Part shown: piece by piece, positions 2,421 to 43,398 of the stretch
How the letters are laid out: every line of letters begins with the position of its first letter
Position numbering within the stretch: the first letter of the stretch is position 1
From: Acinetobacter phage ZZ1
Reading direction: 5' to 3' (one strand)
Length of the DNA: 64,000 bases
Sequence record: NC_018087.3
Made by a program: the position numbers and the translations under genes
Notes under the pieces: generated by a model
What the model was told of the DNA's origin: nothing
Databases searched by the model: none
What the model saw: only the letters and a program-made list of their open reading frames with translations

Positions 2421-2894
2421 TCATTTAAACCATTTTGGTGGATTACGTTTAGACCACTTCGCAAGATGTGCTTTCTCATTTGAATATAAGCTACGATAGT
2501 GTTTAACTGCATTTTGATAATGAATTTTGCCTGGCATAACTGCTACAAATTCAGTTAATTTATTTTTACCCACAGGAATACGTTCGATTGAATCAATAAG
2601 TTCAGGAATTAAACGCGAACTTGCATGTACTTTTCCATAACGATGCGTGTATTCGGCAAATAATTCAATAACCAAATTTAATAAGTATTCAAAATTTTGG
2701 CGAGATTCCATAACCCAAAGTACGCTTGGATGATTTTTATGTGTTGCTTTATATAAAGTTTCGCTTTCAATTCCATTTAAACGACATACCGTAGAAAGAA
2801 TTTGGCAATATTCGACACACATTTTAACAACGTGTTTATCACAATGTGCTTGTGCATTGAAAGATGGATTCACATCAAAAAGAAAAATATTCAT
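2421..2894 (-). CDS. possible DenV-like pyrimidine-dimer glycosylase (weak)
   Basis: N-terminal pattern NIFLFDVNPSFNAQAHCDKHVVKMCVEY loosely resembles the RINL..ELSDQHL.AEYRELP N-terminus of T4 endonuclease V, and the size (157 aa) is similar. Weak. Confidence 0.3.
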   Translation of the reverse strand: MNIFLFDVNPSFNAQAHCDKHVVKMCVEYCQILSTVCRLNGIESETLYKATHKNHPSVLWVMESRQNFEYLLNLVIELFAEYTHRYGKVHASSRLIPELIDSIERIPVGKNKLTEFVAVMPGKIHYQNAVKHYRSLYSNEKAHLAKWSKRNPPKWFK

Positions 2895-2904
2895 ATTAAA
2901 TTAC

Positions 2905-3447
2905 TCACTTAAATTTTGTAAATGTAATCAAACGGATTATACGGTCACATTCCGAGATTAGAAAATCAACTGCGTTCCAACGAGCGTTATTAAGCCATAT
3001 TGTACCACGTCTTGATTCATGATCAAACTCTCTTTTACCTCCAATTGGATATGCAAGTTGACCATAATGACAATTCCAACCGTCAAAAGCATCGCGAGTT
3101 TGTTTGGCTAAAGCTAATCGGTGCAAAGGAACTGCACCGCAAATACCGCGAGATAACGATACGGTATTTTCTAAGCTTTTAATATAAACGCGATATGATT
3201 TTTTATCATGTCTTACAGAGCATTCCTGTAAAATATCTTTAGCTTGAACTAAAGATACTAATTGTGTTTTAAGAGCTTCCATTTCGGCAACTGTTATACA
3301 ATCAATACCATATAACTTAATTTCCGTATTTCGCATTGTTTTTGCACGATATCGTGTATATGAACCATCATATTTTTCAATGGATTGTAAAATATAAACT
3401 TCTCCGCGGTACAAAACTTTTGTACCTAATGGTATTTTGTCATACAT
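2905..3447 (-). CDS. hypothetical protein, possible His-Me/HNH-type nuclease
   Basis: C-terminal DGWNCHYG...EFDHESRRGTIWLNNARWN is His/Asn-rich like a His-Me finger. Low confidence. Confidence 0.25.
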   Translation of the reverse strand: MYDKIPLGTKVLYRGEVYILQSIEKYDGSYTRYRAKTMRNTEIKLYGIDCITVAEMEALKTQLVSLVQAKDILQECSVRHDKKSYRVYIKSLENTVSLSRGICGAVPLHRLALAKQTRDAFDGWNCHYGQLAYPIGGKREFDHESRRGTIWLNNARWNAVDFLISECDRIIRLITFTKFK

Positions 3448-3493
3448 TTCAATTTACTCATCATTAATTGATATAATCTATAATACTAAAAAA

Positions 3494-3517
3494 CCAGGGT
3501 TATGTACATAACCCTGG
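3494..3517. terminator. palindromic bidirectional terminator (TATGTACATA-core family)
   Basis: CCAGGGTTATGTACATAACCCTGG flanked by an A-run and a T-run. Confidence 0.55.
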
Positions 3518-3681
3518 TCCTTATTTTTAACCTAAAATATTGTATTTGGTTAACAATTGATCAATAATCAAATACCATCCTATAGGAGGAAATAAAACTG
3601 CACCTAATGTCCACCAAAATCCTTTGGCGATAACAATACCTGCAATATAAACAATAAATGCAAAAAGTCTAACTAATGCGC

Positions 3682-4152
3682 TCATATTTTATCCCTTTTA
3701 CGTAAAGTGTCGATTGTGCTTAAAACATTTTCCATTGACGCTTTCATATAACGTGCCAGGCTAATGCGACGAGGGTTTAACCATAAGTTTAGTTCATCTT
3801 GCGGTCGTGTACCATATTCATTTTGTCCACCCACTGGATAAACCGGACTATATTCTGGGTTATATTCGGGCCATTCCGATATTAATTTATATTTTAATGT
3901 GCCAAATGTAATATCGGCCGCATAACATAACCCATCTTCTTTAGGTTTAATTACTAAACGACTTTCACCCAATACTACAACATGTTGATTGGTGGTTTGC
4001 AATTCATCTAAATTGTCTAAGATGACATTAATTTTACGGATTGCAATTGGTAAATATTTAACAAAATAATCCAAACGAGCTGGATCGTGATGCTGAAGAT
4101 ATTCAATGTATTCTGTTGAAGTCATTTTTTGTATATATTCAGGCATAGTCAT
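3682..4152 (-). CDS. hypothetical protein (156 aa)
   Basis: ORF; no motif recognised. Confidence 0.35.
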   Translation of the reverse strand: MTMPEYIQKMTSTEYIEYLQHHDPARLDYFVKYLPIAIRKINVILDNLDELQTTNQHVVVLGESRLVIKPKEDGLCYAADITFGTLKYKLISEWPEYNPEYSPVYPVGGQNEYGTRPQDELNLWLNPRRISLARYMKASMENVLSTIDTLRKRDKI

Positions 4153-5108
4153 AACTGATCGTCCATATGCATAATAAGTTTATCTGAATCACGAGCAAGA
4201 ATAAATTTATCAACATAAATTCCGTCATACATACGTGATACCAATTCATAATTTTCCCAAGCAAATTGCCTAAACCAACCACTTGTTATTGAAGTACAAA
4301 CTTTTTCTAAAGCCATGTCAAAGGCTTGACGAGGTTTAACATTAAAATTATTTGGGATTAACACACGTTCAATCGCAAGAACATATGCTTCTTCTAATAC
4401 ACCCAATAATTGAATTTCCCGAGGTTGTGCAAAAAATTTCTCTCTTGAGCTTTTAACTTCTTGATCATATTCCATATAATACATATATGCAGGTCTATCT
4501 AAAACTTTAACTGCATTATGAATAGAATCGTGATCATACACATATGCAAAATTTGAATTAAAGAAATCCGATTTGCTCACATTTAATTTAGGATGCGAAT
4601 AATCATAAGTTTCTTTTTCACGTAACTTTAACCATTCTTCGTCATAAACTTTTGCACCAATTTTTTGCAAATTGCGAATAGTCACCATTGTCTTTCTAAA
4701 ATGAGGTGAATTTTTAAGATAACGATGAGACCATTTCAGCATAAACAATACATCTAATGGCGCAACTTTACAAATTACTCCATTAATAGTCGTGTATTCT
4801 TTCCAATAAGAAGAAAGCAATAATAAATTTGATGTACTGGTATCATCAGTATAATCAAGAGGATGAGTAATTTCAAAAATTACTCCATCACATTTAAATG
4901 CTTTAGTATGAGTATTAAACTTTTTAGAAGTTATACTAACTAAAGGGGTTGTTTCAATTGCATTTTCTTGAATTACACTACTAATACCTTTTGCATCATA
5001 TTCATCTTGTACAATAAGATCATAATCTTTAGGCACAATATTATGCGCAATTTCCATTTTATCAAGATGGTATGCGAGTGCTGCAGAACCAATTAAAAGA
5101 GGTCTCAT
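4149..5108 (-). CDS. hypothetical protein with N-terminal Pol-beta-type nucleotidyltransferase-like motif
   Basis: MRPLLIGSAALAYH...KDYDLIV matches the GS...DxD pattern of the Pol-beta NTase fold. Confidence 0.3.
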   Translation of the reverse strand: MRPLLIGSAALAYHLDKMEIAHNIVPKDYDLIVQDEYDAKGISSVIQENAIETTPLVSITSKKFNTHTKAFKCDGVIFEITHPLDYTDDTSTSNLLLLSSYWKEYTTINGVICKVAPLDVLFMLKWSHRYLKNSPHFRKTMVTIRNLQKIGAKVYDEEWLKLREKETYDYSHPKLNVSKSDFFNSNFAYVYDHDSIHNAVKVLDRPAYMYYMEYDQEVKSSREKFFAQPREIQLLGVLEEAYVLAIERVLIPNNFNVKPRQAFDMALEKVCTSITSGWFRQFAWENYELVSRMYDGIYVDKFILARDSDKLIMHMDDQL

Positions 5109-5352
5109 TTTTTACGTCCTGTATTAATATTAAGAAGACGTTTAATGTCTTTTTGAATACGGTTCAATTCATCATAATCGGCACGGTCAGTAATACATAC
5201 CGTTGCAATACTTGGCCCAGGCCGCATGGTTTTCATTACACTTTTAATATTAGTGCGAGCCGCAATAATAAGTTGTGTTTGTAAATTATTCATGATATTT
5301 TCCTCTAAGACGTGTCAAATTATTTTAAACCAAAATACCTCTTATGTACATA

Positions 5353-5892
5353 TTATCCTGCTGCTTTGTTAATCATTTCTTCAATAATTGACACAACTTT
5401 AGGATTTTTTAACATTGTTGATGCAGTACCTTGTATTGTCATGTTAGTACCATCTTTAATGTTTAACTGTTTAGGATCACCAGCCGCTTTATCCGCAGCA
5501 ATTTCTAAATCATCTTCAGAAATAAAATATGCTTTTTTCCGATCATTTGGAGAAATTGCTACATGCGCCCCATGCAAAATTTTGTTAACAATTGCAGGAT
5601 TTACTCTATGGTATCCGGTACTAAATTTGTCAAGTGTGGCATACCACCCTTTAATTTCAAAGTTTACCGCATCTTTAAGAGTTTTACCATAGCCAAATTG
5701 ATTTTTTGCTGGGGCAATAACAAGGGTAAGAGTAAAATGTTCACCTACTGCATAACCGGGACGATCTGCATAAGAGTTGATATGTACTGCAATCTCATCG
5801 CCTGATTTTTCTGTATGCATATAATCCCGGTCTTTTTTAATTACAGTTAATTGAGGTTTAGACGCTTCATATAATTTACTAAATTTTGACAT
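5353..5892 (-). CDS. hypothetical protein (179 aa)
   Basis: ORF; no motif recognised. Confidence 0.35.
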   Translation of the reverse strand: MSKFSKLYEASKPQLTVIKKDRDYMHTEKSGDEIAVHINSYADRPGYAVGEHFTLTLVIAPAKNQFGYGKTLKDAVNFEIKGWYATLDKFSTGYHRVNPAIVNKILHGAHVAISPNDRKKAYFISEDDLEIAADKAAGDPKQLNIKDGTNMTIQGTASTMLKNPKVVSIIEEMINKAAG

Positions 5893-5957
5893 ATAATGCC
5901 TTCCAATAAAAGTGTTATTAACTATTTATGAAAATATTATAACAAATATTTTAATCG

Positions 5958-6332
5958 TTAGGTATAGAATTTTTTACAATTATCAAAAAGAATTTGTTTC
6001 CATTTAGTTTCAGTCATTTGATCTTCATCATCCCACATCATACTATCAAATCCGTATTTTAAATAATCGGCGTATGCAAATAATGGAATTTCATCATGAA
6101 TAATTTCATAAATGTTGCGTACATACTCTTCAAAATACATACGTAATATACGAAGTTCAGTTTGAAATGATACACTAGTTAGTGCACCATTATATTTTTG
6201 ATAAAGTAATTTGCATGCGATGTTTGCAAAAATTGCTCGGTCATCACGGACCTGTTCGGGTTCACAAAAAGTTCTAGTCATTGCTTGCATACCATGTAAT
6301 AGTTTTACGACCGTATTCATCGGTAACTTCAA
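5958..6332 (-). CDS. hypothetical protein (124 aa)
   Basis: ORF. Confidence 0.3.
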   Translation of the reverse strand: MKLPMNTVVKLLHGMQAMTRTFCEPEQVRDDRAIFANIACKLLYQKYNGALTSVSFQTELRILRMYFEEYVRNIYEIIHDEIPLFAYADYLKYGFDSMMWDDEDQMTETKWKQILFDNCKKFYT

Positions 6333-6540
6333 AATCTAATTCTGCCAAGTCACCATTATGTGTACGAAGATGATCATCTTCATAAATCATATCTTCGATT
6401 AGTTGTGCCTGTTCTTGGATATGAGCAAGAATTTCTTTAATCAATACAACTTTACGCCGACTTGATTTAATCTTTATTTCTTCAAGCTGATTTTGTAAAT
6501 CACGCTCGAGAATAGATGCACCCACATGTTTTTTAGGCAT
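6274..6540 (-). CDS. hypothetical protein (88 aa)
   Basis: ORF overlapping its neighbour. Confidence 0.3.
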   Translation of the reverse strand: MPKKHVGASILERDLQNQLEEIKIKSSRRKVVLIKEILAHIQEQAQLIEDMIYEDDHLRTHNGDLAELDFEVTDEYGRKTITWYASND

Positions 6541-6785
6541 TAACTATTCTCCGAAGATGCGGACCATTCACCAGTTTCATGGTCATATGTACCACCCATG
6601 CCGTATGCAGGGCCCGAAATATAAAAAGTAAGCTTATGTTTATCTGCAAAAACTTCGGCTTCTAAAACGGCTGAATTAATTGCATCTTTTAAGCGTTTAA
6701 GTTCTTTTTGCTGTTCATCATATGTCATGTCATGTTCCTCAATTGGCTATTACTCATTCTAACATAAGTAATAGCCAAAGCAAAT

Positions 6786-8270
6786 TTAAAAGGTTAAAGA
6801 TTCTGCCAATGCATCCAATTCACTTCGTGAAGCTGCTGCGACACGGTGCACTTTATCCATTTCGACAGATTTGTGTAATTCAATAGATTCTTGTGTAACA
6901 GGTACTTGATCTGCTGCACCGATACATGCTTGAATAATTTCTTCTTCACTTGGAATAATTGGAGCACTTGGACCATCTTCTTCATGCCAACGCTGATTAC
7001 CTTTCTTAACACACAAGTTAAACTTATTATTAACCATCTTATCACCGTATCGGGATTTGATTTGTTTCATAAGTTGAATACCTTGTGCTGCTAAATCTTC
7101 GGTTTCAATAACAGCTAAAATAAAATCGGCTGTGTGACTCAAGCCCGCAGATTCTGCAATATCTCCCATTGTAATATCAGAGTTATCCCACCCACCACGT
7201 GTTGTTTGTGCCGCGGTCCAAATTGGCACTTCCTCTTCAACTGCTAAAGCCCGAAGCTCTTCTGCAATTGCTTTTACTAAAGTATATGAGTTTTCACTAA
7301 ACACTTTAATGCGAGAAGATGCACAAATACCTAAGTAATCGACAACAATAATATCAGGTTTAAACCCCTTCTTTAACTTCAATTCATTTAATAATGCCTT
7401 AAATGTTAAAGCGTGCGCACCACCGATTGGATATTGCTTAATATAAAGTTGGCCAAGTACATTGGATTTTCTCCAACGTTCCATTTTACCTTTATATTCT
7501 GCATAAGATACATGACCTTCATCCAGGTCATCCATTGTAACATCTAGTAAGTTGGCATCAATACGTTTTGCTACAACTTCTTCAGCCATTTCCATGGAAA
7601 TGTATAAAACATTTTTACCCATTTGTAAATAATCGGCTGCAAGAGAACACAGACCCAATGATTTACCAACGTTTACACCCGCAAGTAAAATATTCAAAGT
7701 ACCGGTTTCAACACCACCTTTTGTAATAACATTTAACTTATTAAGTTTAAATGGTACTTTACGGGTTTTATTTTGATATGAAAGCCATCGGGCTTCGTAA
7801 TCATCCATCCAAGAATGACCGATTGATGAGTCAAAACAAATAGATAAGGCTTCTTTCATAATGTCTGGAATTGCACCAACATCAGGTAAATACTTATCTC
7901 GTTTTTCTTTTGGCTTTTCCGCATTTAATTGAATTTGGACAATGCGAGTGGTTGCATTATACATTGCAACATTTTTAACATATTGCTCTGTTTCAGGTAC
8001 TAGCCAATCATTAGATTCTTTTTCAAGTTTCAAACGATTTAATAATTCCATTGCACCCTTATATTCAGTTTCGGGCAGTTGAGAATTACCTATTGCAATA
8101 TCAAGAGCTACTTTGCTTGGAACCCCATTATAAGCATCAACATGTTTTTTAATAGAATTAAAAATAGTACGAGCGGGACCTTTTTCAAAGTACTCGTCTT
8201 TCATATATGGCCATACCCGACCAAAATATTCCTGGTTGGATATCAGTTGGCCCAAAATTACATCAATCAT
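6786..8270 (-). CDS. 41: replicative DNA helicase gp41 (DnaB-like)
   Basis: Near-colinear with T4 gp41 as I recall it (MxxIILxxLIxxQxYFxxVWPYM..., GVETGTLNxLxAGVNVGKSLGLCSLAADYLQ Walker A, ...SRYGDK...). 494 aa versus T4 475 aa. Confidence 0.9.
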   Translation of the reverse strand: MIDVILGQLISNQEYFGRVWPYMKDEYFEKGPARTIFNSIKKHVDAYNGVPSKVALDIAIGNSQLPETEYKGAMELLNRLKLEKESNDWLVPETEQYVKNVAMYNATTRIVQIQLNAEKPKEKRDKYLPDVGAIPDIMKEALSICFDSSIGHSWMDDYEARWLSYQNKTRKVPFKLNKLNVITKGGVETGTLNILLAGVNVGKSLGLCSLAADYLQMGKNVLYISMEMAEEVVAKRIDANLLDVTMDDLDEGHVSYAEYKGKMERWRKSNVLGQLYIKQYPIGGAHALTFKALLNELKLKKGFKPDIIVVDYLGICASSRIKVFSENSYTLVKAIAEELRALAVEEEVPIWTAAQTTRGGWDNSDITMGDIAESAGLSHTADFILAVIETEDLAAQGIQLMKQIKSRYGDKMVNNKFNLCVKKGNQRWHEEDGPSAPIIPSEEEIIQACIGAADQVPVTQESIELHKSVEMDKVHRVAAASRSELDALAESLTF

Positions 8271-10341: not shown

Positions 10342-10690
10342 TAGATTTTAAACATGCGCCATAAGATGACGTGTAAAAAGATGATTTGATATAACCAAAT
10401 CGTAATTGTGCTTCTTGAATTGAAATTTGTCTACATGCTTCTGCAATTAATTCACGAGCACCGGCTTTCGGTTGGTTTCGAATGATTTTATCAACTTCGC
10501 GTTGCTTTTCAACAGCCACATTAATTTGACTTTGCATCCACTTGCGATGACTTGCGATATCGTCATCAAGAGCTTGTTGACGTTGATATTCTTTTTCAAT
10601 GCATTTTGTATCCCAATTATAACAACCAGGCACAGCAGCATTTACTGAAGTTAATGTGCATACACTCAAAATTAAAATAAGATTTTTCAT
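10322..10690 (-). CDS. secreted protein (N-terminal signal peptide)
   Basis: N-terminus MKNLILILSVCTLTSVNAA is a signal peptide. Confidence 0.4.
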   Translation of the reverse strand: MKNLILILSVCTLTSVNAAVPGCYNWDTKCIEKEYQRQQALDDDIASHRKWMQSQINVAVEKQREVDKIIRNQPKAGARELIAEACRQISIQEAQLRFGYIKSSFYTSSYGACLKSNGISYD

Positions 10691-10983
10691 TAGATTACTC
10701 CAATCATACTTGCAATTACAGCAAGTTCACCGGCACCAATGATGAAAACTAAAAACATTAAAAATATAGCAAATGCGATTGATTTTAATGTATTAGCAAG
10801 GCCAATTGAAATTGCAGAAACAATAAATGCAATAATTGTGGTAAGACCCATTGTAACAAAGCCAAGTAAATTTAAAATAAGACTTGTTAAAATTATGCCT
10901 GTTGACCGTTTATAATACACTACCATAACAGTTGGAAAAAATGATAAAAATAACCCAACTAATGCTGCTAAAATAAGACTCAT
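10690..10983 (-). CDS. small integral membrane protein (97 aa)
   Basis: Almost entirely hydrophobic. Confidence 0.4.
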   Translation of the reverse strand: MSLILAALVGLFLSFFPTVMVVYYKRSTGIILTSLILNLLGFVTMGLTTIIAFIVSAISIGLANTLKSIAFAIFLMFLVFIIGAGELAVIASMIGVI

Positions 10984-11306
10984 AATTTTTTCTCCCGAGC
11001 ATCTACATGGATGATACGGATATTATTTGCATCGGGATATACTTCCCAACGATAGTTTTCCCAATTTTCAAGAAGTACATTATCAATTTTTGCAACGCCC
11101 ATATATCCTTGGTATGCATCCCAACAAGTTTTATCTTTAATTGGTTCATCGGAACTAAACACTGCGATTGAACCATCCTTGTCGATTGCAAGCCATTTTG
11201 CATTCTTTGGTATATAAATTGTATGATCAATGCCTTCAGGCGACCATTCAGTTTTTAATCGAAGAATAACTTGAGGCGGAGTATATAGATTTTTAAAAAT
11301 TGCCAT
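10980..11306 (-). CDS. hypothetical protein (108 aa)
   Basis: ORF. Confidence 0.35.
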   Translation of the reverse strand: MAIFKNLYTPPQVILRLKTEWSPEGIDHTIYIPKNAKWLAIDKDGSIAVFSSDEPIKDKTCWDAYQGYMGVAKIDNVLLENWENYRWEVYPDANNIRIIHVDAREKKL

Positions 11307-11351
11307 AATAAAATTCTCAAATTTGTATCTTGAATATAATATTACTAAAAA

Positions 11352-11377
11352 TCCAGGACTATGTACATAGTCCTGGA
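11352..11377. terminator. palindromic bidirectional terminator (TATGTACATA-core family)
   Basis: TCCAGGACTATGTACATAGTCCTGGA flanked by A/T runs, downstream of 43B. Confidence 0.55.
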
Positions 11378-11386
11378 TAATTTATT

Positions 11387-11698
11387 TCAACTTTTTTCTA
11401 TGAATCGTATTTTATACTCTTCACAAATTTTATCCGCCGTATTAAAAGCTTGTGTTGGAGTAGAACCATCTTTTAATCTACTTAATACGGATGTTAACCA
11501 TATCGGGCCCAAATCAGGATGTTCTCGTTTAGGCTTGTTAATAGAATCAAACTCTTTTGCTCGACGCTTTGCATCATAAACCTGAGCATCCGATACAATC
11601 ATAGTAGTTCTACATTTTCGACAACGGACTTGCGGAGGATTACTCAACAAGACCGAATTGTAGTTAAAATCATGAACACATGTTTCTTGATTTGCCAT
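11387..11698 (-). CDS. small zinc-finger protein (CxxC...CxxC)
   Basis: Contains C..H...CRKCRTTM cysteine pairs. Confidence 0.4.
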   Translation of the reverse strand: MANQETCVHDFNYNSVLLSNPPQVRCRKCRTTMIVSDAQVYDAKRRAKEFDSINKPKREHPDLGPIWLTSVLSRLKDGSTPTQAFNTADKICEEYKIRFIEKS

Positions 11699-11700
11699 AA

Positions 11701-12885
11701 TTAGAATCCAAAAATATCTTCAAGCGATGCCCGCTTTTCAAATTTAAGCCCTGCTGCGTCACTCATTGCCTCTAGAGGTTTTTTGAATGATTTCGCAAAC
11801 ATTTCTGCCGTATCAATATGACGTAAAACATCATCTCGAATTTCTTTTGGTAAATCATTACCAGACGGCCAAGCCATAACTTTTTCACCAAATGGATTAC
11901 CCTGTTTGAGTGGGATAACCATAACTTTTTCGCCTTCCATAATATCAGGAAGACCTTGGAATTTTTTAATTGCTCGTTTATATGCAAGTACACCACGAAT
12001 ATGACCAGGACATTTTAATCCAGGGAATCCTTTATCGTCATATTTTGCAATATTGTTTGCTGCTGATACTTTAGCAACCACCTTATAATCCAATTTACGG
12101 AATTCTGCATCAAATTCCTTATAATATTCTTGTAAAGATGATTCACCTTCTTGTAACATACGACGAACAGCTTCATATAATGCATCTTTAACCGCTTTTG
12201 GTGTAGATGATTTTTGTGTTTCCAGCCCCATGATTTTTAAATATGGTTCTTTAAAACGCACGCCTTCCATGTCGTATACATTTAATGCATAACGTTTCTT
12301 CGCGGTCCAGAATGCACCAATACCGTCAGAACCTAATGGTGGGCATGCAATTGCTTCGCGGTCCATAAACATTAATTGTTCATAATTGTTTAAGTATTCG
12401 CACATTTCAGCAAAGCCTGCATTAATAACAGGTTCGATCTTTTTAGATGCAACAGCATCCAAGAAATCTACAAGTTGTTCAGTTGTTGTAAATCGGTCCA
12501 ACCCAACCTTTTCAATCAATGGTGATAGTTCAAGATATAATGAATCAGTATCACCATAAATGACATATGCATGATTTGTAGTACCACACATCTCATTCAA
12601 ATATGCGTTAATCTTTCGTTCGGTCCATTGTAATACAAGTTGACCAAAAATAGTAATAGCTTCTGCATTTCGAAGATCATAAAAGCGGAACCAAATATTA
12701 CCCAATGCACCATAAAGTGAGTTAATCAATAATTTACGGTTAATCTGATTCGTGTCACATAATGTAATATAGTCTTCGCATTGGTCTTCTAACGCAATAA
12801 GTTCTTCTTGCGAAAGTGTCTGCAAATATGCAATTTCTTCTTCTGTAAAGTCCCGGCTAAAGTCAAGAACCATATCATACTCCAA
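11701..12885 (-). CDS. 43B: DNA polymerase gp43, C-terminal cistron (43B: palm/fingers/thumb)
   Basis: Colinear with T4 gp43 residues ~505-898 (NQINRKLLINSLYGALGNIWFRFYDLRNAEAITIFGQ, YGDTDS, KKRYALNV, ...LEDIFGF C-terminus). It has its own ATG. Confidence 0.9.
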   Translation of the reverse strand: MEYDMVLDFSRDFTEEEIAYLQTLSQEELIALEDQCEDYITLCDTNQINRKLLINSLYGALGNIWFRFYDLRNAEAITIFGQLVLQWTERKINAYLNEMCGTTNHAYVIYGDTDSLYLELSPLIEKVGLDRFTTTEQLVDFLDAVASKKIEPVINAGFAEMCEYLNNYEQLMFMDREAIACPPLGSDGIGAFWTAKKRYALNVYDMEGVRFKEPYLKIMGLETQKSSTPKAVKDALYEAVRRMLQEGESSLQEYYKEFDAEFRKLDYKVVAKVSAANNIAKYDDKGFPGLKCPGHIRGVLAYKRAIKKFQGLPDIMEGEKVMVIPLKQGNPFGEKVMAWPSGNDLPKEIRDDVLRHIDTAEMFAKSFKKPLEAMSDAAGLKFEKRASLEDIFGF

Positions 12886-12930
12886 TATAAGGGTTTAAAT
12901 TATTATACAATTAATATAAAAATAAGCGCT

Positions 12931-13170
12931 TTAATCATCATCTCGTGGGTTAATGGTATAAGTTAAACCAATGTAGCCTACAACTTCATCAGGTAAATCA
13001 ATGAATAAAATCTTTGCAACTTCAATTAGTTCATTGATTTTTAGTTTAGCAATATTCATGTCATCAGAATAATCACCACTTGAATAAGTATTAGAATAAT
13101 CGGCATATGTATAATCATACACGTGCTTTTCTAAACGCTTAATAAAATTATCATGTTGAGATTTAGTCAT
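12931..13170 (-). CDS. hypothetical protein (79 aa) in gene-43 insertion
   Basis: ORF between 43A and 43B. Confidence 0.3.
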   Translation of the reverse strand: MTKSQHDNFIKRLEKHVYDYTYADYSNTYSSGDYSDDMNIAKLKINELIEVAKILFIDLPDEVVGYIGLTYTINPRDDD

Positions 13171-13212
13171 ATGTACCTCAAAAATAAAAAGAAGGCTTAA
13201 AGCCTTCTTTAG

Positions 13213-13593
13213 TTAAATTGATAACATCCTATTATTCAGAACAATGCGAATTACCTTATCGACGGTTATACTGTTTCTTAGTGATGCATTGGCTGAAATT
13301 TTACTTAGGCCTTCATGTGCCAAATAAAATAAAAGTTTATTTGGGTCTGCATCATAATGAACAACATGATCTAATTTGGGTTCCCACTTTTCCTTTTTAA
13401 CAAGATGTACTGTAAAATCCGTTGAAAACGGATTTTTACGTATTTGATCCATTAAATTATTAATAACATCATTTAGAATTGCTTCAAATGTCTTCTCATA
13501 TTGAGAGATTTGTTTACGAGCTTCGTCGCATATAAATTGATCTAAAGTTGTCATTAAATATTCCATATAAAAAGTGGCCAGTAATTTGACCAC
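13213..13593 (-). CDS. hypothetical protein (126 aa) in gene-43 insertion
   Basis: ORF between 43A and 43B. Confidence 0.35.
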   Translation of the reverse strand: MVKLLATFYMEYLMTTLDQFICDEARKQISQYEKTFEAILNDVINNLMDQIRKNPFSTDFTVHLVKKEKWEPKLDHVVHYDADPNKLLFYLAHEGLSKISANASLRNSITVDKVIRIVLNNRMLSI

Positions 13594-13603
13594 TTATATA
13601 TAT

Positions 13604-13804
13604 TTAGAACATTGCGTTTACAGTTTGAGACCCCGCTTCAAATGGATTTTTAAACATTACACAACCACATAAAAACCCAGCCAGATATAATAATGGGATA
13701 CAAAACAATAATCCAAATAAAATACGCCAAGCCAGAGGTGCTTTTTCGCTAAATCCTTCAGCATCTTCCCATGCATTTTTAATTTGAAATAAAATATCAG
13801 ACAT
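13604..13804 (-). CDS. small membrane protein (66 aa) in gene-43 insertion
   Basis: Hydrophobic core LLFCIPLLYLAGFLCGCVMF. Confidence 0.3.
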   Translation of the reverse strand: MSDILFQIKNAWEDAEGFSEKAPLAWRILFGLLFCIPLLYLAGFLCGCVMFKNPFEAGSQTVNAMF

Positions 13805-14154
13805 TATATTACTCCTACCAAATAATTTAATATATGTAGTGTCGGTGTAATTCGTAAATCAGATTGATATGATTGCATTGCCATAGTATGAACATATTCA
13901 ACTGTTGAATTATGTGTACAACGAGCGTTTAATGTTGTTTCAATATTTTTACGAACTTGATCCACAGTATTAAAATATGTTTTCGGCCTTGGCAAATTTA
14001 AGGCTTTTAAAATTGCGGGTTGCCAATTAACAGAGAAGCCTTGTGGCTTCTCTTGAATAATAAACAAATGTGTTTCTAAACGCTCAAACACTTCATTTGT
14101 TTGACTAGATTTCATAACGTTTAACCACCATATCGTAACGAGGATGTTTTGCAC
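13804..14154 (-). CDS. hypothetical protein (116 aa) in gene-43 insertion
   Basis: ORF. Confidence 0.3.
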   Translation of the reverse strand: MQNILVTIWWLNVMKSSQTNEVFERLETHLFIIQEKPQGFSVNWQPAILKALNLPRPKTYFNTVDQVRKNIETTLNARCTHNSTVEYVHTMAMQSYQSDLRITPTLHILNYLVGVI

Positions 14155-14428
14155 GTAATTCTGATTGAATTTTTACAAAACCATCAAAAATTTCATGTAA
14201 CAAAGGTACTGTAATTGCTTTATGACTTAATGTTTTAGCCAATTCTAAAATTGCATCGCGAATATCTTTACGAACATCATCAGCAAACTGGTTTATAAAC
14301 ATATCATCACAATCTAATAATGCATTACCGTCACGAATTATGCATAAGTATGGATATACATTAACACTTTGAACTTGTGAGTTATGTGAAATTACGCCAG
14401 CATCAAATTCAATAAAATTGGTTTTCAT
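14105..14428 (-). CDS. hypothetical protein (107 aa) in gene-43 insertion
   Basis: ORF. Confidence 0.3.
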   Translation of the reverse strand: MKTNFIEFDAGVISHNSQVQSVNVYPYLCIIRDGNALLDCDDMFINQFADDVRKDIRDAILELAKTLSHKAITVPLLHEIFDGFVKIQSELRAKHPRYDMVVKRYEI

Positions 14429-14455
14429 AACATTTTCCTCAAATACTTTAAAAGA

Positions 14456-14728
14456 TTAAGCAATAACTAATTTAGTTGCGATTGGCTCAAGTTCATCTGC
14501 TAAGGCCGCTAAGTTTAATGTTGTTACATCAACACCAATGTAATTATGGATAATACGTTCCATTTGTTGGATTTCATTTAAATTTGATTCGCGAATATAT
14601 TCGGGTACAACAAATTTAACTGAATCATTTGCAAATAAAACAGATACTTCACCCAAAGTAATTTTACCGTCAAGCGAACGTGTTGCGCGAGCATCTACAA
14701 CTGCTTTACATTGATTTAATACTTTCAT
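14456..14728 (-). CDS. hypothetical protein (90 aa) in gene-43 insertion
   Basis: ORF. Confidence 0.3.
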   Translation of the reverse strand: MKVLNQCKAVVDARATRSLDGKITLGEVSVLFANDSVKFVVPEYIRESNLNEIQQMERIIHNYIGVDVTTLNLAALADELEPIATKLVIA

Positions 14729-14789
14729 TTCATTTACCTTGTTTGCTTGATGTGATCATTATATCACATCCCTGTGATAATGGAACCCT

Positions 14790-16298
14790 TTATTTAATTA
14801 ATTTTTTAATTATTTCTGCATTACGTTCTGCAGTCTTCATTTTCTTCTTCCATTCTTTACGTTGGAAGAAAACTTTAGCTGTTTCACGTGGAATCACACC
14901 TTGTTTGGTCTTATCATACATCATGCCACTCGGTGAACATGAATAACGATCAGAAGGTTTCTTAGCAATTCGTCCAATATAGTCTGCTAAAGGTGCCGGT
15001 GCAAATTGGCCAGCAATTGTTTCTGGACTAATATTAACTTGTCGAATAATCGATGGGTAAAGTGATGTTACGTCAAATGATACAACATACTTATATGCCC
15101 CAGGTTTTGGTTCTTTAACAAATGCACCTGCATATGGTTGTCGTACATTAGATTTGGTTTCCGGTAACACCAAATGATCAGGTTTCAATGAGTTAAAAAT
15201 AATCGCATCCCAGGTTTTTACTGGACTCATTACACCTTGAATATTCATTTTAGCATAATAACCCATCGAAATAGATAGATTAATAAATCCACGCTTCATA
15301 TCAATAGCTTGTACACAGTATACGTCTACAATGTTATATGAAATATAACGCTGATGATTTGTACTTCGTAATTTATTAATTGGACCATCATATGCCAATT
15401 TATTGATTTTTGCTTCATACTCTGCAATATAATCAAGTTTATATGTAGGCTGAGTAGTAAATGAGAACTTTTTATAAAGATCAATATAATCTAAAATTTG
15501 AACACCTGAAATACTAAAAATTTCAGCGTCACCATACATATTTGTAATTGTCTTAGATGTAATACGACCAAATGGACTCATTTTTTTCATATAAGAAACG
15601 CCGAGTACGTTCTTAATACGATTTAATAAGTACGGGATATCAAACCCTTCAATATTCCATCCTGTGAAAATAACGGGAGGTTTTTCTTCCCAAAGACGAA
15701 CATATTCTTGCAGCATTTCATGTTCAGTATCAAATGCGAAGTATACAACTTTATCTAAAATATGTTGTGGGACTTCATCACCACCTTCAGACTCAGGCAA
15801 AGCTGCTTTAATACGATCCCAGGGTTCAACACGCCCATCGCTAGAATTTAATAAATCAAATACATAATACTTATCATCTATCGAATCATAATGCGTAATA
15901 GCATCAATTTCGTATTTTGCAAATGCAGGCTCAGGGAACTCAGGTGCTGTTACCTCAATGTCACAATTGGCAACACGAATCGCTTTGCGGTCATATGTGA
16001 TATCTGAATTATATGTGTCAGAAATATAGGCTAGTTTAAAATCGTCCATGCCTAAAATTTCAACAATACCACGAGTCTTTTGGGCCCATTCTTTTGCTGC
16101 ACGAATAGATGTAAATTCTTTTGGTAAACACGGTTTACCATAAATGTCTTTATGCTTAGTTACAGTACCTTCTTTTGCATGAATAAACAATGTTGGTTCA
16201 TATGCAACTTCACGACGTTTTTCAATACCATCTTCAATATAACGTTCCTGAATTAAATCACCGGATTGTTCTACTACTAGATAAAAAGTATTACTCAT
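14790..16298 (-). CDS. 43A: DNA polymerase gp43, N-terminal cistron (43A: N-terminal + 3'-5' exonuclease domains)
   Basis: Colinear with T4 gp43 residues 1-~500 (ERYIEDGIEKRREVAYEPTLF, FKLAYISDTY, VANCDIEV, DAITHYDSIDD, GWNIEGFDIPY, LDYIDLYKKFSF, QRYISYNIVDV, LYPSIIRQVNISPETI, KVFFQRKEWKKKM). It ends with a stop where the T4 protein continues. Confidence 0.9.
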   Translation of the reverse strand: MSNTFYLVVEQSGDLIQERYIEDGIEKRREVAYEPTLFIHAKEGTVTKHKDIYGKPCLPKEFTSIRAAKEWAQKTRGIVEILGMDDFKLAYISDTYNSDITYDRKAIRVANCDIEVTAPEFPEPAFAKYEIDAITHYDSIDDKYYVFDLLNSSDGRVEPWDRIKAALPESEGGDEVPQHILDKVVYFAFDTEHEMLQEYVRLWEEKPPVIFTGWNIEGFDIPYLLNRIKNVLGVSYMKKMSPFGRITSKTITNMYGDAEIFSISGVQILDYIDLYKKFSFTTQPTYKLDYIAEYEAKINKLAYDGPINKLRSTNHQRYISYNIVDVYCVQAIDMKRGFINLSISMGYYAKMNIQGVMSPVKTWDAIIFNSLKPDHLVLPETKSNVRQPYAGAFVKEPKPGAYKYVVSFDVTSLYPSIIRQVNISPETIAGQFAPAPLADYIGRIAKKPSDRYSCSPSGMMYDKTKQGVIPRETAKVFFQRKEWKKKMKTAERNAEIIKKLIK

Positions 16299-16340
16299 AT
16301 TTTAATCCTCATCAAGATATACTAATTATAAAATAAAAAA

Positions 16341-16359
16341 GGGGAAAGCAACTTTCCCC
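16341..16359. terminator. rho-independent terminator upstream of 43A / downstream of neighbouring ORF
   Basis: GGGGAAAG-caac-TTTCCCC with a flanking A-run and T-run. Confidence 0.55.
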
Positions 16360-16364
16360 TTTTA

Positions 16365-16598
16365 TTACTTGTCGCCTTGGACAACAGCTGTTTTTGTCAT
16401 TTCTTCTTGAGGTACAAATCCATTATCTGTTTTTACAAAACACCCACTAATTAATGAATATTTTGTGGTACGGCCTGTAATAGATTCATAACTGTTACAT
16501 TTAATATAGCCACTCACTGTATTGTATGTTAAGCCTACTACAACAATAACACAGACGATAATAACAGAGAATATGAGTTCAATTAAATTATTGCTCAT
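16365..16598 (-). CDS. small membrane protein (77 aa)
   Basis: N-terminal transmembrane helix. Confidence 0.35.
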   Translation of the reverse strand: MSNNLIELIFSVIIVCVIVVVGLTYNTVSGYIKCNSYESITGRTTKYSLISGCFVKTDNGFVPQEEMTKTAVVQGDK

Positions 16599-16982
16599 TT
16601 ATGCACCTACAACATATTTTGATTTAAGAGTCCACTCGGCTTTCTGTGCAGCTTTAATAACACGAAAATTATTGGTAACTTCAATTTCAGGTGGCGCAAA
16701 TTCAACCTCAACAAGACCCCATGTTTCAAGTGTCTTAGCAATAGAAACAGTACGTTGAACATCTTCATCGCTAATATTAACTACTTTACCATCCAAGCGC
16801 ATCATATCTTTAAAGTGAACAATATAAAATTTAGGTTCACCTGTCGCAGGGTCTTGTTTTTTCAAGATATGACATGATTGATATAAAACTTTATCACGTT
16901 GATTTGCAATACCCATACGGGTTAAGGTTTCTTTTACTTTCAAAAAGTTTTCAGATTGTACAAGTTTAATAGGGATCATCAT
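16599..16982 (-). CDS. regA: translational repressor RegA
   Basis: FLKVKETLTRMGIANQRDKVLYQSCHIL is near-identical to the T4 RegA core; position between 43 and 62 as in T4. Confidence 0.8.
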   Translation of the reverse strand: MMIPIKLVQSENFLKVKETLTRMGIANQRDKVLYQSCHILKKQDPATGEPKFYIVHFKDMMRLDGKVVNISDEDVQRTVSIAKTLETWGLVEVEFAPPEIEVTNNFRVIKAAQKAEWTLKSKYVVGA

Positions 16983-17566
16983 AGTAGTTTCAACTCTTTA
17001 AGTTCTTTGGGATTTTTGGTAATTGACTTTAAAAAGTCGTCTGTCGCTAATGCTTTAGCATCGCGTAATACTTCAGTTAACTTACCTTTATGCTCAAGTA
17101 ATTTTCGATAGTCATAAGCCGTATTTGCATTAACTTTATAATATTTCATTAAAAGCTGAATAATATATTTGTCTTTAAAACTCTCATCCAGCTTTACAGT
17201 TTTGCTAAATCTACGACCTTTTGGAATCAACATTGTCAAATAATTATGATGATGTTGATCACTAAGACCTTGTAATACCATATTGGACATATACACAGCA
17301 GGCATACATTCAATGTGTCGACTTAACATGTTGTCAATCATAAACTTTGAATAGTCCATATGCATTACAGACATTTCACGTTTATTTTGATTGATATTAT
17401 TTAAGATTTTAAACAAATCGGCTTCTGGCTTTTCTTTAAATTCGTCAGCAAGTTTTTTAACTGCATCCCAATCTTTATTCATCCAAGCAACTTCATGAGG
17501 ATTAAGTTGAACTTCATCCTCATCAAATAAACAAATCATACTCATTTTATCACTCCAATTATACAC
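16979..17566 (-). CDS. 62: clamp-loader small subunit gp62
   Basis: Synteny (regA-62-44-45) and size (195 aa vs T4 187 aa). Confidence 0.65.
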   Translation of the reverse strand: MYNWSDKMSMICLFDEDEVQLNPHEVAWMNKDWDAVKKLADEFKEKPEADLFKILNNINQNKREMSVMHMDYSKFMIDNMLSRHIECMPAVYMSNMVLQGLSDQHHHNYLTMLIPKGRRFSKTVKLDESFKDKYIIQLLMKYYKVNANTAYDYRKLLEHKGKLTEVLRDAKALATDDFLKSITKNPKELKELKLL

Positions 17567-17598
17567 CGGTCATTATAACATATATGACCGGCAAAGCA

Positions 17599-31430: not shown

Positions 31431-31486
31431 ATTGATTTCCTCATTTGGAATTTCATGAAATTATATCATGAAATTCCAATAATGTG

Positions 31487-41033: not shown

Positions 41034-41108
41034 GGCGGCGTCGCCAAGGACTCGAACCCTGGATTGCGGATTTGGAATCCACCGTGTTTCCAACTACACT
41101 AACGACCC
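41034..41108 (-). tRNA. tRNA-Trp (anticodon CCA)
   Basis: Manual fold: D-stem GTGT/ACAC, anticodon stem GTGGA/TCCGC, loop TTCCAAA, T-arm CAGGG-TTCGAGT-CCTTG. Acceptor has one G.G mismatch and CCA is not exactly encoded. Confidence 0.55.
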
Positions 41109-41347
41109 TTAAACTGCAAATGTGCCAGCATGAAATAATCTCAAACACAATATAAAACATGTTGTCAACGCAGGAAAGCTTAATGGCATGTCACGATATA
41201 AATTGACAAGTGCATGCAAGCTGTTCTTTTTTAATTATATAGTAAGCACCAACAAATTGTGAAACGGTGGAATGAGTGAGGCAATTTGCTTTACTCAAGT
41301 ACCTATACTTACTATAGTGTATATTCGTCTTACGAGAAATATACAAA

Positions 41348-41425
41348 TTGGTCTCCGTAGAATGATTTGAACATTCGACACCTGCGTCCCAAACGCAGTG
41401 CTCTACCAGACTGAGCTATACGGAG
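41348..41425 (-). tRNA. tRNA-Pro (anticodon UGG)
   Basis: Manual fold: acceptor CTCCGTA/TACGGAG, anticodon loop TTTGGGA (G37), T-arm GAATG-TTCAAAT-CATTC, encoded CCA. Confidence 0.7.
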
Positions 41426-41431
41426 TTAAAA

Positions 41432-41518
41432 TGGTGTGCCCCCTGGGATTCGAACCCAGATAGCGTTAGCGCCGGAGTTACAGTCCGGTGAGTATGGCCA
41501 ATAACTCGAACGAGACAC
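41432..41518 (-). tRNA. tRNA-Tyr (anticodon GUA), type II with long variable arm
   Basis: Acceptor GTGTCTC/GGGGCAC (G.U wobbles), anticodon arm CCGGA-CTGTAAC-TCCGG, variable arm GCG-CTAA-CGC, T-arm CTGGG-TTCGAAT-CCCAG, CCA. Confidence 0.7.
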
Positions 41519-41638
41519 ATAAATTGCCGTGAAATGTCCTTTTATACTTTCGAGCATTTCACCACTCAATAAGTAAATCTTGAAGCTTTGTTTGTTTTAC
41601 AAGAGGAAACTTCGTCCTGCTTATCAGGCAATTAAATC

Positions 41639-41733
41639 TGGCGGAAGGTGAGGGGGTCGAACCCTCAAGGCGTGTCACCACGCTCGACTGATTTCAAGTC
41701 AGCTGCCGTCGCCAGCTTTCGGCTTGACCTTCC
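41639..41733 (-). tRNA. tRNA-Ser (anticodon UGA), type II
   Basis: Acceptor GGAAGGT/ACCTTCC, anticodon loop CTTGAAA, long variable arm GCGTG-GTGA-CACGC, T-arm GAGGG-TTCGACC-CCCTC, G73, CCA. Confidence 0.7.
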
Positions 41734-41800
41734 AATAAAATATTGACGACCTAAGAACCTTTACACCAATAATGGAGACTTAGGACCCTTTACATCAATT

Positions 41801-41879
41801 TGGCTCCCACCGTGAGATTCGAACTCACCTAACCTCGGATTAACAGTCCGGTCCATGCACCTAGCTCGGATTCGTGGGA
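41801..41879 (-). tRNA. tRNA-Asn (anticodon GUU)
   Basis: Anticodon loop CUGUUAA as in E. coli tRNA-Asn, T-arm GTGAG-TTCGAAT-CTCAC, acceptor with one mismatch, CCA. Confidence 0.65.
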
Positions 41880-41886
41880 ATAATTC

Positions 41887-41962
41887 TGGTGCCGACACGA
41901 GGATTTGAACCCCGGACCCTCTGATTACAAAACAGACGCTCTACCAACTGAGCTATGACGGC
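41887..41962 (-). tRNA. tRNA-Thr (anticodon UGU)
   Basis: D-arm GCTC-AGTTGGTA-GAGC, anticodon loop TTTGTAA, T-arm CGGGG-TTCAAAT-CCTCG, acceptor GCCGTCA/TGTCGGC (one U.U), CCA. Confidence 0.7.
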
Positions 41963-42058
41963 AAATCATTAATCAAATGAACCCGGGATACAATTTGAAT
42001 TTTGCGAGGATAAGTCGCTCATCTACCGGTATCGCCAAGATCATTTGATTAATGATCT
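41962..42058. repeat. 17-bp perfect inverted repeat flanking a 60-nt structured insert, abutting the 5' end of tRNA-Thr
   Basis: AATCATTAATCAAATGA (41962-41978) and its exact reverse complement TCATTTGATTAATGATC (42041-42058). The insert contains an anticodon-arm-like hairpin GCGA-CTTATCC-TCGC. Confidence 0.5.
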
Positions 42059-42364
42059 TATACATTTATTTATACAACCCAAAAGGGCACCAGTATGACC
42101 ACTTGCCGAGAACACAGTGAGTTAAAACTCTTTATGACAAGATTAATAAAATTTGATCGCTAAAACTTTGAACTTTACGAAATAAAAACTTTAATCTTTG
42201 AGATTTAAACTTTAAGCTTTCGCAATTTTGGGATAATGTACAGTCTTCGCGCATGGGAATCTGTATCACCATCAAAGTTCTATAACCTTAGAAGTTAGCC
42301 GATTTTAGGATGCATCGGCTAGAACCCTCTACAGTTTTTGATCATACTGATTTTATTTAAAACA

Positions 42365-42934
42365 TTAATCTAAAACAATTAATGGATTATTTTCTGTTAA
42401 AATTGCGTCGAATTCAAGCTCGAAGAAATCTATTGTCTTTTTAATTTCATCGAGTTCTTCTTGTATGTCCAGAATTGTAGGTTTTTCTCGTTTTTCCAAC
42501 AATGTCTTGAACTCGGCGTCATCTGATGGAGTTTTGAGCATCTTAGCATCAAACTCACGTTCAACTTGAACAAACAGTGAACGATTTGCAGCTAAATCTT
42601 TTTGCATTTTAGCATATAAGGCTTTAAGCTGAGGTAAAACATGAGTACGATATGTTAACGCATCATTAATACTCATTTCCATGTTGCCAATTTGAATTGT
42701 ATGTTTTGCATTGGCTCGATTAATTGCACAGCGCAATTTAAATTCTTCAGCTAAGCGATCTTTAAATGATTGAATATTACGACGACTTCCTTCAGAAAAT
42801 TCTTTAACCGGTCGTGCTGTTGAAATTTCAACTCCATTACGGAATACACCAGAAAATGCTGCATCACGAAGATCTGAAGTGAATGATACTTTATTGCGTT
42901 TTAACGTAACTAAACCACGAGCGATTGTAGTCAT
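42365..42934 (-). CDS. hypothetical protein (189 aa) embedded in the tRNA island
   Basis: ORF between the two tRNA sub-clusters. Confidence 0.4.
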   Translation of the reverse strand: MTTIARGLVTLKRNKVSFTSDLRDAAFSGVFRNGVEISTARPVKEFSEGSRRNIQSFKDRLAEEFKLRCAINRANAKHTIQIGNMEMSINDALTYRTHVLPQLKALYAKMQKDLAANRSLFVQVEREFDAKMLKTPSDDAEFKTLLEKREKPTILDIQEELDEIKKTIDFFELEFDAILTENNPLIVLD

Positions 42935-43155
42935 AATAAATTCCTCTATTCAAAATAAACTTTATGTGATCATTATATCATTAAATTATGAAAAGCAACT
43001 TAATTACTAATCATGTCCAACTTTTTTATTACATAATATACAAGTAGATTCTTTAGAATAATAACCCATATCATTTAACATTCTAGCTGTATATGAATCA
43101 TTATCTTTAGTTACTTGATAATAATGTTTGCAAAATAACTGTTTGAAGAACTTAA

Positions 43156-43398
43156 TCATTTAAGACGCACCTTGGCTTCAAAAACAAATCTGTATTCATC
43201 ATCCGTCAAAACTTTGGCTCGTTCATAAGAAGTTGCCATTCTTAAAACGGCACCAGTATATGATACAATTGCAAAAACACAATTTTTAGAATCTTTATTG
43301 GCAATTTCACCAACTTTAAATCTAAATTTTTTATACGTATATTTATTATCATACGTACATAAAAATTGTGCTAAATTTTTAGAAAATGTAAATCTCAT
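43156..43398 (-). CDS. hypothetical protein (80 aa) embedded in the tRNA island
   Basis: ORF. Confidence 0.35.
   Translation of the reverse strand: MRFTFSKNLAQFLCTYDNKYTYKKFRFKVGEIANKDSKNCVFAIVSYTGAVLRMATSYERAKVLTDDEYRFVFEAKVRLK

Follow-up and report, generated by a model that had tools for sequence, protein, structure and literature searches.

The replicative DNA polymerase of T4-like phages, gp43, is in some of these phages encoded by two cistrons in place of a single gene 43. In the part of PMC3061061 that deals with Petrov 2006 and 2010, natural splits at the fingertip of the enzyme are given for the T4-like phages 133, 44RR, 31, 25, and 65, the two open reading frames (ORFs) being separated by as little as 2 bp in Aeromonas and up to 3 kb in Acinetobacter (phage 133). 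The Acinetobacter enzymes were described by Petrov et al. 2006 (J Mol Biol 361:46), according to the passages of PMC3061061 and PMC2839356 that cite this work, whereas for phage 25, a passage of PMC2988022 citing Petrov 2010 (J Mol Biol 395:457) states that the products of 43A and 43B co-purify, with polymerase activity. Also, the genome paper of Acinetobacter phage ZZ1 (Jin et al. 2014, PMC4177764) reports gene 43 as intact in T4 and split in ZZ1. Here, we analyze this locus in a stretch of 64,000 nucleotides of the ZZ1 genome (sequence record NC_018087.3; from here on, the window), where two large ORFs lie on the minus strand of positions 11701 to 16298, 1.9 kb apart, with six small co-oriented ORFs between them. 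A preliminary description of the window had mentioned split 43 genes from a few T4-like phages, of Aeromonas lineages; this is right for Aeromonas, but the split has also long been known in Acinetobacter phages, including ZZ1 (PMC4177764; PMC3061061, PMC2839356). Then, the split of gene 43 is real but already known, for ZZ1 since 2014 and as a class characterized between 2006 and 2010. It is annotated in dozens of GenBank records and as a discovery matters little, and for the assembly of a replicative polymerase from two chains, the ZZ1 locus offers no new route beyond those of 133, Acj9, and 44RR.

Breaks in family-B DNA polymerases (PolB) are also found outside of the T4-like phages. The PolB of phage RM378 is split between the N-terminal and palm domains, and that of Methanothermobacter, reportedly described by Kelman in 1999, is said to be a natural split enzyme broken in the palm. 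These two polymerases and an engineered Pfu polymerase resemble what is proposed here for ZZ1 in showing that a PolB can be broken and still be assembled from two chains; however, the first two are broken elsewhere than at the fingertip, and the split of the third is artificial. In the Pfu enzyme, the break lies near the fingertip and full activity is kept (PMC3061061).

Position of the split in gp43

Gene 43A (14790-16298, minus strand) encodes 502 aa between an ATG start and a TAA stop and comprises the N-terminal domain, the 3'-5' exonuclease, the initial portion of the palm with motif A, and the first of the finger helices. Its product matches T4 gp43 over residues 3-500 (E 3.9e-214) and RB69 gp43 over residues 3-502, and Pfam recognizes DNA_pol_B_exo1 followed by the first part of DNA_pol_B. 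The motifs found in this half are CDIEV (residues 112-116, Exo I), NIEGFD (215-220, Exo II), YNIVDV (321-326, Exo III), FDVTSLYPS (408-416, palm motif A), and QRKEWK (479-484). Gene 43B (11701-12873, minus strand; 390 aa from an ATG at 12873) supplies the second finger helix (motif B), the remaining palm (motif C and KKRY), the thumb, and the C-terminal tail. It matches T4 gp43 over residues 516-898 (E 4.2e-159) and RB69 gp43 over residues 516-903, and carries KLLINSLYG (47-55, motif B), YGDTDS (106-111, motif C), KKRYA (192-196), and LEDIFGF (384-390), this last being aligned with the C terminus of T4 gp43, which we take to be the sliding-clamp-binding end. The set of exonuclease and polymerase motifs is complete, with Exo I-III and motif A in 43A and motifs B, C, and KKRY in 43B. 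On these alignments, it is confirmed that the two ORFs are collinear with the halves of gp43, on the same strand and in the same order, at a level of similarity far beyond chance. The 43A assignment thus stands as first proposed, as an N-terminal part of gp43 that ends in a stop.

The start of 43B needs a correction. The preliminary description gave this gene an ATG of its own, which is the case, but placed it at 12885, where the codon is TTG. Counted from there, the ORF (11701-12885) would have 394 aa; nonetheless, the TTG overlaps the Shine-Dalgarno sequence (ttGGAGtatgatATG), and because it lies inside the ribosome-binding site, the ATG at 12873, preceded by GGAG, is preferred and is almost certainly the start, giving 390 aa as in the annotation of Henu6, a near-identical phage. 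In the same way, the collinearity of 43B with the C-terminal part of gp43 holds up to T4 residue 898, but its beginning corresponds to residue 516 and not to a residue near 505. K502 of 43A aligns with T4 M501, and M1 and V2 of 43B align with T4 R515 and Y516. From this pairing, the gap amounts to around 13 residues of the fingertip loop (T4 502-514, KGAGSCSTKPEVE) without counterpart in either half, instead of the 25 or so first estimated.

The break maps to T4 residues 501/515 and RB69 residues 502/516. It falls between QRKEWK of 43A, which contains the equivalents of RB69 R482 and K486 in the first finger helix, and KLLINSLYG of 43B, with the equivalents of K560 and N564 in the second; the roles of these finger residues in RB69 gp43 and the fingertip site of the natural splits are described in PMC3061061. 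Judged from the alignments, the break in gene 43 separates the two long finger helices and is located at the tip of the fingers domain. The useful result is then a split point fixed to the residue, with the fingertip residues that lack a counterpart delimited and the dNTP (deoxynucleoside triphosphate)-binding residues divided between the chains.

The stop after ...IKKLIK and the restart at M..DFSRD are found again in genomes that were sequenced independently and that belong to several genera, and variant ends at the same break point are present in 133, Ac42, and Acj61. Also, the separate signals, namely, the TAA stop of 43A and the GGAG and ATG of 43B, are conserved in six further phages. A sequencing error as the origin of the stop is therefore discarded. 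More generally, an explanation of the stop and the insert as an assembly or sequencing artifact, or as a decaying pseudogene, has a negligible probability and is refuted by the conservation across genomes, the identical architecture being present in more than 60 Acinetobacter phage records, each sequenced independently. Against a pseudogene also stand the complete motifs, the inclusion of gp43 in the core gene list of the T4-like phages (PMC2993671), and the differences from Henu6 within 43A and 43B, of which six are synonymous and one is nonsynonymous.

Comparison with other T4-like phages

The locus was compared with its counterparts in PhT2 and Maestro (both Hadassahvirus), Kimel (Lazarusvirus), Acj9, Acj61, Ac42, and 133, seven further T4-like phages of Acinetobacter, and also in Aeromonas phage AhMtk13a, in T4, and in several related enterobacterial phages. 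All seven Acinetobacter phages are split at the same point, whereas the enterobacterial phages are unsplit. The distance between 43A and 43B is 1.9 kb in ZZ1, 1.8 kb in Maestro, 2.0 kb in Kimel, 2.1 kb in PhT2, 2.4 kb in Acj9, 2.5 kb in Ac42, 2.9 kb in 133, and 4.0 kb in Acj61; in AhMtk13a, it is 53 nt at the same point.

The closest relatives are Henu6 (MK240351) and vB_AbaSt_W16 (PP174317), both classified as Zedzedvirus zz1, which are 99.2% identical to the window over 6 kb and represent effectively the same locus with no substantive difference, apart from a 66-aa ORF (13604-13804) that is unannotated in Henu6. The Henu6 record names both halves "split DNA polymerase." Over the 6 kb, 49 point or indel differences separate the window from Henu6, and within the ORFs of 11000-17000, flanking genes included, 25 of the differences are synonymous and eight are nonsynonymous.

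The genomes of 133, Acj9, Acj61, and Ac42 come from the Karam laboratory. They share with ZZ1 the fingertip split and the gene order regA-43A-[small ORFs]-43B, and their cargo, that is, the small ORFs of the insert, is homologous to that of ZZ1, with two families (A and B) present in all four and a third (C) in Acj9 and Acj61. On the other hand, their inserts are larger (2.4-4.0 kb versus 1.9 kb), their polymerases are 60-78% identical to that of ZZ1, and one ZZ1 cargo ORF (o107) is lineage-specific.

Phages 44RR, 31, and 25 of Aeromonas, represented here by AhMtk13a, are like ZZ1 in the split at the fingertip loop and in a hairpin right after the 43A stop. However, the gap of AhMtk13a is an untranslated sequence with no multi-ORF cargo. 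Phage 25 differs from ZZ1 in having a seg-type homing endonuclease gene associated with gene 43 (PMC2988022) and a group I intron within gene 43 (PMC2993671). In a crude, midpoint-rooted neighbor-joining tree of gp43, the split Acinetobacter enzymes form one clade, and this clade is sister to the unsplit T4 group and not to the Aeromonas enzyme, which lies outside. The fingertip would then have been split on two occasions, or else the split was healed in the T4 group, this tree being compatible with both scenarios.

A probable polymerase of two separately translated chains

Based on the collinear halves, the separate signals, and the complete motifs, a two-subunit PolB, as first proposed, continues to be the best reading of the locus. 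We consider it very probable that ZZ1 encodes a bicistronic T4-family replicative polymerase gp43, broken in the fingertip loop, whose two chains would be translated separately and would then associate noncovalently. The distribution of the motifs, together with what is known of RB69 gp43, implies that the nucleotide pocket and the catalytic carboxylates must come from both chains. Then, the dNTP-binding and catalytic site would be built from motif A and the R/K finger residues of 43A and from motifs B and C of 43B. That the two products associate and are active is suggested by analogy with the Aeromonas phage enzymes. The 1.9-kb gap would be a small hyperplastic region of early-type genes, made of a promoter-bearing hairpin, the six small ORFs, and two terminator-like hairpins, and inherited from a common ancestor of the Acinetobacter T4-like phages before being reshuffled.

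Some points weigh against this proposal. The association of 43A with 43B and the absence of splicing rest on sequence and analogy. Moreover, several GenBank records annotate the polymerase as a single coding sequence (CDS) across the insert, which implies splicing: in Maestro (MT949699), it is a two-piece joined CDS (2716-7173), and according to their feature lists, AB-Navy71, Mokit, Melin, AB-Navy97, AB-Navy4, and AC4 have a "DNA polymerase" that overlaps a cargo ORF. Also, the candidate promoter of 43B, although its -10 hexamer is perfect, lacks a convincing -35 and a convincing MotA box, and the -35 of the promoter proposed in the hairpin after 43A is weak.

The joined annotations bring up the first alternative, in which the insert would be a large group I or group II intron that is spliced from the messenger RNA to restore a single gp43 frame, and there are other T4-like phages with a group I intron in gene 43 (phage 25 and JSE; PMC2993671). 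Nonetheless, an Rfam search over 10500-17500 found no intron family at E<=1 and returned three weak unrelated matches, and a scan of the whole window at gathering thresholds gave tRNAs only. The 43A stop and the Shine-Dalgarno and ATG of 43B are conserved in every lineage. The insert also varies between 1.8 and 4.0 kb, with six to ten annotated ORFs, among phages whose polymerases are 60-80% identical, and its counterpart in the Aeromonas phages, for which a two-subunit enzyme has been shown (PMC2988022), is just 53 nt. Moreover, the ORFs of the insert have their own Shine-Dalgarno sequences and are accompanied by a promoter-like hairpin and two terminator-like hairpins; an insert with its own promoter-like, terminator-like, and ribosome-binding signals fits a separately expressed gene cluster and not an intron. 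We therefore regard splicing as very unlikely. The public annotation of gp43 is inconsistent, given that Henu6, PhT2, Kimel, Acj9, Acj61, and 133 are recorded with two CDSs ("gp43A/gp43B split DNA polymerase") and the split was detected here in Ac42 as well, and the sequence evidence favors two CDSs. This argument against the joined, intron-like CDS in several Acinetobacter phage records is of practical use.

A second alternative is protein trans-splicing, with a split intein joining the two translated halves, considering that the annotations of some Aeromonas phages (Aes508) include split polymerases that contain inteins. In ZZ1, however, the polymerase alignments stop no more than one or two residues short of either end of the junction, up to the penultimate residue of 43A and from the second residue of 43B, and there is no room for an N-intein of around 100 aa or a C-intein of around 35 aa. 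Neither Pfam nor PHROGs detected a Hint/intein domain in the halves or in the cargo, the halves having PolB domains alone. Because the halves of an intein cannot fit, this alternative is effectively refuted by the sequence, and its probability is vanishingly small. The proposal that the insert is neither an intron nor an intein is in this way sustained, and two chains that stay separate continue to be the preferred reading.

Two further candidates were considered and rejected. Readthrough or bypass of the 43A stop would face a TAA codon, which would be unreadable by the putative CTA-anticodon suppressor tRNA of the phage, with an in-frame TGA around 20 codons on. For homing endonuclease cargo, the Pfam and PHROGs searches gave no GIY-YIG, HNH, or LAGLIDADG match in either half or in the six cargo ORFs, in agreement with the lack of such motifs noted at the outset.

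The cargo ORFs

All six ORFs of the insert are on the minus strand and fit the size range first given for them (66-126 aa), and five of the six have a recognizable Shine-Dalgarno sequence. In the order of transcription, the first is o90 (14456-14728; 90 aa, Shine-Dalgarno AAGG), the family A member (phrog_21960, 8.9e-43). It is followed by o107 (14105-14428; 107 aa, Shine-Dalgarno GAGG, TAG stop) and by o103 (13804-14115; 103 aa from the ATG at 14115, or 116 aa for the frame 13804-14154 if started at GTG), which belongs to family B (phrog_26620, 9.7e-53). Next are o66 (13604-13804; 66 aa with one hydrophobic stretch), of family C (phrog_24434, 1.4e-38) and annotated as a transmembrane protein in Maestro, and o117 (13213-13566; 117 aa from the ATG at 13566, or 126 aa for the frame 13213-13593 if started at GTG), which has no clear Shine-Dalgarno sequence. 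The last is o79 (12931-13170; 79 aa, Shine-Dalgarno GAGG).

The families were obtained from an all-against-all BLASTP of the gap ORFs of eight Acinetobacter lineages, the window included. Families A and B are present in all eight, in the same order and including the distant 133 and Ac42, while the other cargo turns over. The o90 family is the first ORF after 43A in each of the eight lineages; the o103 family comprises 64 phage records, all from Acinetobacter-type phages, and is inside the gene 43 gap in the eight lineages where the gap was examined; and the o66 family is kept in six of the eight. The remaining ORFs are more restricted. For o107, tblastn gave matches in Henu6 and W16 only, with a very weak match to the same-position ORF of PhT2 and Kimel, and it is essentially lineage-specific; o117 has a homolog in PhT2 only (46% identity), and o79 has one inside the gene 43 gap of Acj61 (35% identity). 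The cargo, which the preliminary description considered different from that of other split loci, is instead a diverged version of one common to the Acinetobacter T4-like phages. Its identities are of 30-58%, compared with 60-80% for the polymerase halves. This shared but diverged cargo across genera suggests that the insertion predates the radiation of these Acinetobacter phage genera and that its content has been partly turned over since, as would be expected from a single ancestral insertion. It is thus of use to know that part of the cargo, families A and B, would match the Acinetobacter T4-like clade in age. When the window is compared with Henu6, nine synonymous and three nonsynonymous differences are found in the cargo ORFs, a pattern that is weakly consistent with coding constraint.

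Regarding function, Pfam and PHROGs assign the six cargo ORFs only to families of unknown function, and when profiles of the A and B families were searched against PDB sequences, no match was below E 0.06. A single-sequence AlphaFold2 (AF2) model of o103 reached a predicted local distance difference test (pLDDT) score of 57, too poor for a fold search, and a word-indexed homolog search with this protein returned just two proteins. An exhaustive HMMER search with o90 gave 27 matches, mostly to phage-sized proteins of around 90 aa.

The other HMMER matches of o90 are of a different kind, being multi-stretch matches to proteins of 500-2900 aa, with E values down to 1.8e-16 and 23-29% identity. 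Three of the four large proteins that were scanned are arrays of Big_3_5 immunoglobulin-like repeats according to Pfam. A relationship of o90 with Big_3_5 is unconvincing, since o90 itself has no Big_3_5 match in Pfam, and these repeat matches could represent either a remote immunoglobulin-like fold or a composition artifact.

The retention of o90 and o103 in every lineage examined raises the possibility that, besides the split polymerase, these proteins are its dedicated functional partners, acting in assembly or regulation, and not unrelated passengers. In favor of this are the fixed order of both families inside the gap in the eight Acinetobacter lineages while other cargo changes, and the confinement of o103 to Acinetobacter-type phages, in the gap of every lineage examined. 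However, neither protein has a functional annotation or a structural match, the o103 model being of low confidence, and synteny alone could be explained by linkage to an essential gene. Moreover, the Aeromonas phages have the same split without cargo, which indicates that the cargo is not needed for a working split gp43. We consider a role as partners or regulators unlikely, although less so than splicing.

Start, stop, and regulatory signals

Ahead of 43A, a terminator-like hairpin (16337-16363, minus strand; 12-bp stem and T-run) found by a terminator scan would close the upstream unit of regA and small ORFs. Between this hairpin and the 43A ATG at 16298, a TATAAT hexamer (16325-16330) and a GAGGA Shine-Dalgarno sequence (16306-16310), both on the minus strand, were read from the sequence, the hexamer being a candidate promoter; relatives carry TGGTATACAAT or TGTTATAAT at the corresponding site.

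After 43A, 20 nt past its stop and before the first cargo ORF, there is an 8-bp hairpin, GATGTGAT-ATAATG-ATCACATC (14749-14770, minus strand), which holds a perfect extended -10 box (TGATATAAT, 14758-14766), followed by AAGG and ATG. Promoter-early stem-loop (PeSL) cassettes of T4-type phages have been described by Arbiol et al. 2010 (PMC2839356) and Comeau et al. 2014 (PMC4122927). They are defined by sigma-70-like -35 and -10 boxes that overlap or adjoin a stable stem-loop, the whole lying upstream of the Shine-Dalgarno and ATG of an ORF of unknown function, and PeSL-like sequences are reported between g43A and g43B of 44RR and 25 (PMC2839356). The ZZ1 hairpin resembles these cassettes in the sigma-70-type -10 in or beside a stable hairpin, in its location before small ORFs, and in lying in a plastic region. 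On the other hand, its -35 is poor (GTTCCA, three of six positions matching), its stem has no G-run/C-run, and no formal definition of PeSLs has been given for Acinetobacter phages. We then describe it as PeSL-like and as a putative promoter with a weak -35. Hairpins of the same architecture occupy the post-43A position in PhT2, Kimel, and Acj9 and in the Aeromonas inter-cistronic sequence. Right after the 43A stop of PhT2, Kimel, and Acj9, a clearer -35 of TTTACT/TTTACA, a 17-nt spacer, and TATAAT are overlapped by a stable hairpin, an arrangement that corresponds to the PeSL cassettes of PMC2839356.

Two terminator-like hairpins are located inside the insert, both on the minus strand, one between o66 and o117 (13572-13595; 9-bp stem and T-run) and the other between o117 and o79 (13188-13210; 10-bp stem and T-run). 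Finally, 43B is preceded by a TATAAT (12902-12907) and the GGAG Shine-Dalgarno sequence (12880-12883), on the minus strand and with a spacing of 6 nt between GGAG and ATG; this TATAAT is possibly a promoter of 43B itself. A GCGCTTA located 16 nt before it was examined as a MotA-type middle promoter, but it fits the T4 MotA consensus and spacing poorly.

Further TGNTATAAT boxes were seen in or beside hairpins just upstream of gene starts at 17572-17580, 31460-31468, and 42972-42980 (minus strand), and the 17-mer TGATATAATGATCACAT is shared by the box at 42972 and the hairpin that follows 43A (14758). Promoter/stem-loop cassettes may thus form a small family in the genome, although TGNTATAAT is not significantly enriched across the window (14 found versus 8.7 expected).

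A hairpin common to the Aeromonas and Acinetobacter loci

A second hairpin connects the two groups of split loci. At the site after 43A in PhT2, Kimel, and Maestro, it has the same arms, AGGACTAT and ATAGTCCT, as within the 53-nt inter-cistronic sequence of AhMtk13a, with one copy per locus placed exactly at that site. The ZZ1 copy is found at 11355-11374, two genes downstream of the cargo. It is the core of a perfect palindrome with a 12-bp stem, ATCCAGGACTAT-GTAC-ATAGTCCTGGAT (11351-11378, both strands), which follows the ORF 11387-11698. These hairpins may constitute a mobile or recombinogenic stem-loop family. Separately from the question of the o90 and o103 partners, and with the same low probability, one mobile promoter/stem-loop element may have split gene 43 in both host groups. 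The common hairpin is a lead on the origin of the split and not a new kind of element.

The tRNA cluster

In Henu6, a "Seg-like GIY-YIG homing endonuclease" is annotated at 134701-135363, which a constant offset places over 43600-44300 of the window, in the second tRNA cluster. No ORF of at least 60 aa resembling this endonuclease is present in that interval, so that the window and Henu6 probably differ by an indel near 43600-44300, or the offset shifts.

The tRNA cluster itself spans 41037-44269 on the minus strand, from a tRNA-Trp (41037-41108) to the CTA-anticodon tRNA (44196-44269), which is the last of the cluster. Adding exactly 32000 to these coordinates gives the published ZZ1 positions of both tRNAs (73037-73108 and 76196-76269), so that the window corresponds to positions 32001-96000 of ZZ1 or of a collinear isolate. 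The CTA-anticodon tRNA, predicted to read UAG, is called "tRNA-Pyl" by ARAGORN and scores 59.6 bits with the Rfam tRNA model; in the ZZ1 paper, it appears as ZZ1t008 Sup(CTA), and Acj9 is given as having a counterpart (PMC4177764). The cargo ORF o107 ends in TAG, the codon that this tRNA is predicted to read. Between tRNA-Arg and the CTA tRNA, a ninth tRNA-like sequence (44111-44188, minus strand) was detected by Rfam with 34.4 bits, over a gathering score of 29. It has no ARAGORN call and is outside the published list of eight ZZ1 tRNAs; by eye, it shows a 7-bp acceptor stem, a CCA end, and an anticodon loop that is seemingly oversized.

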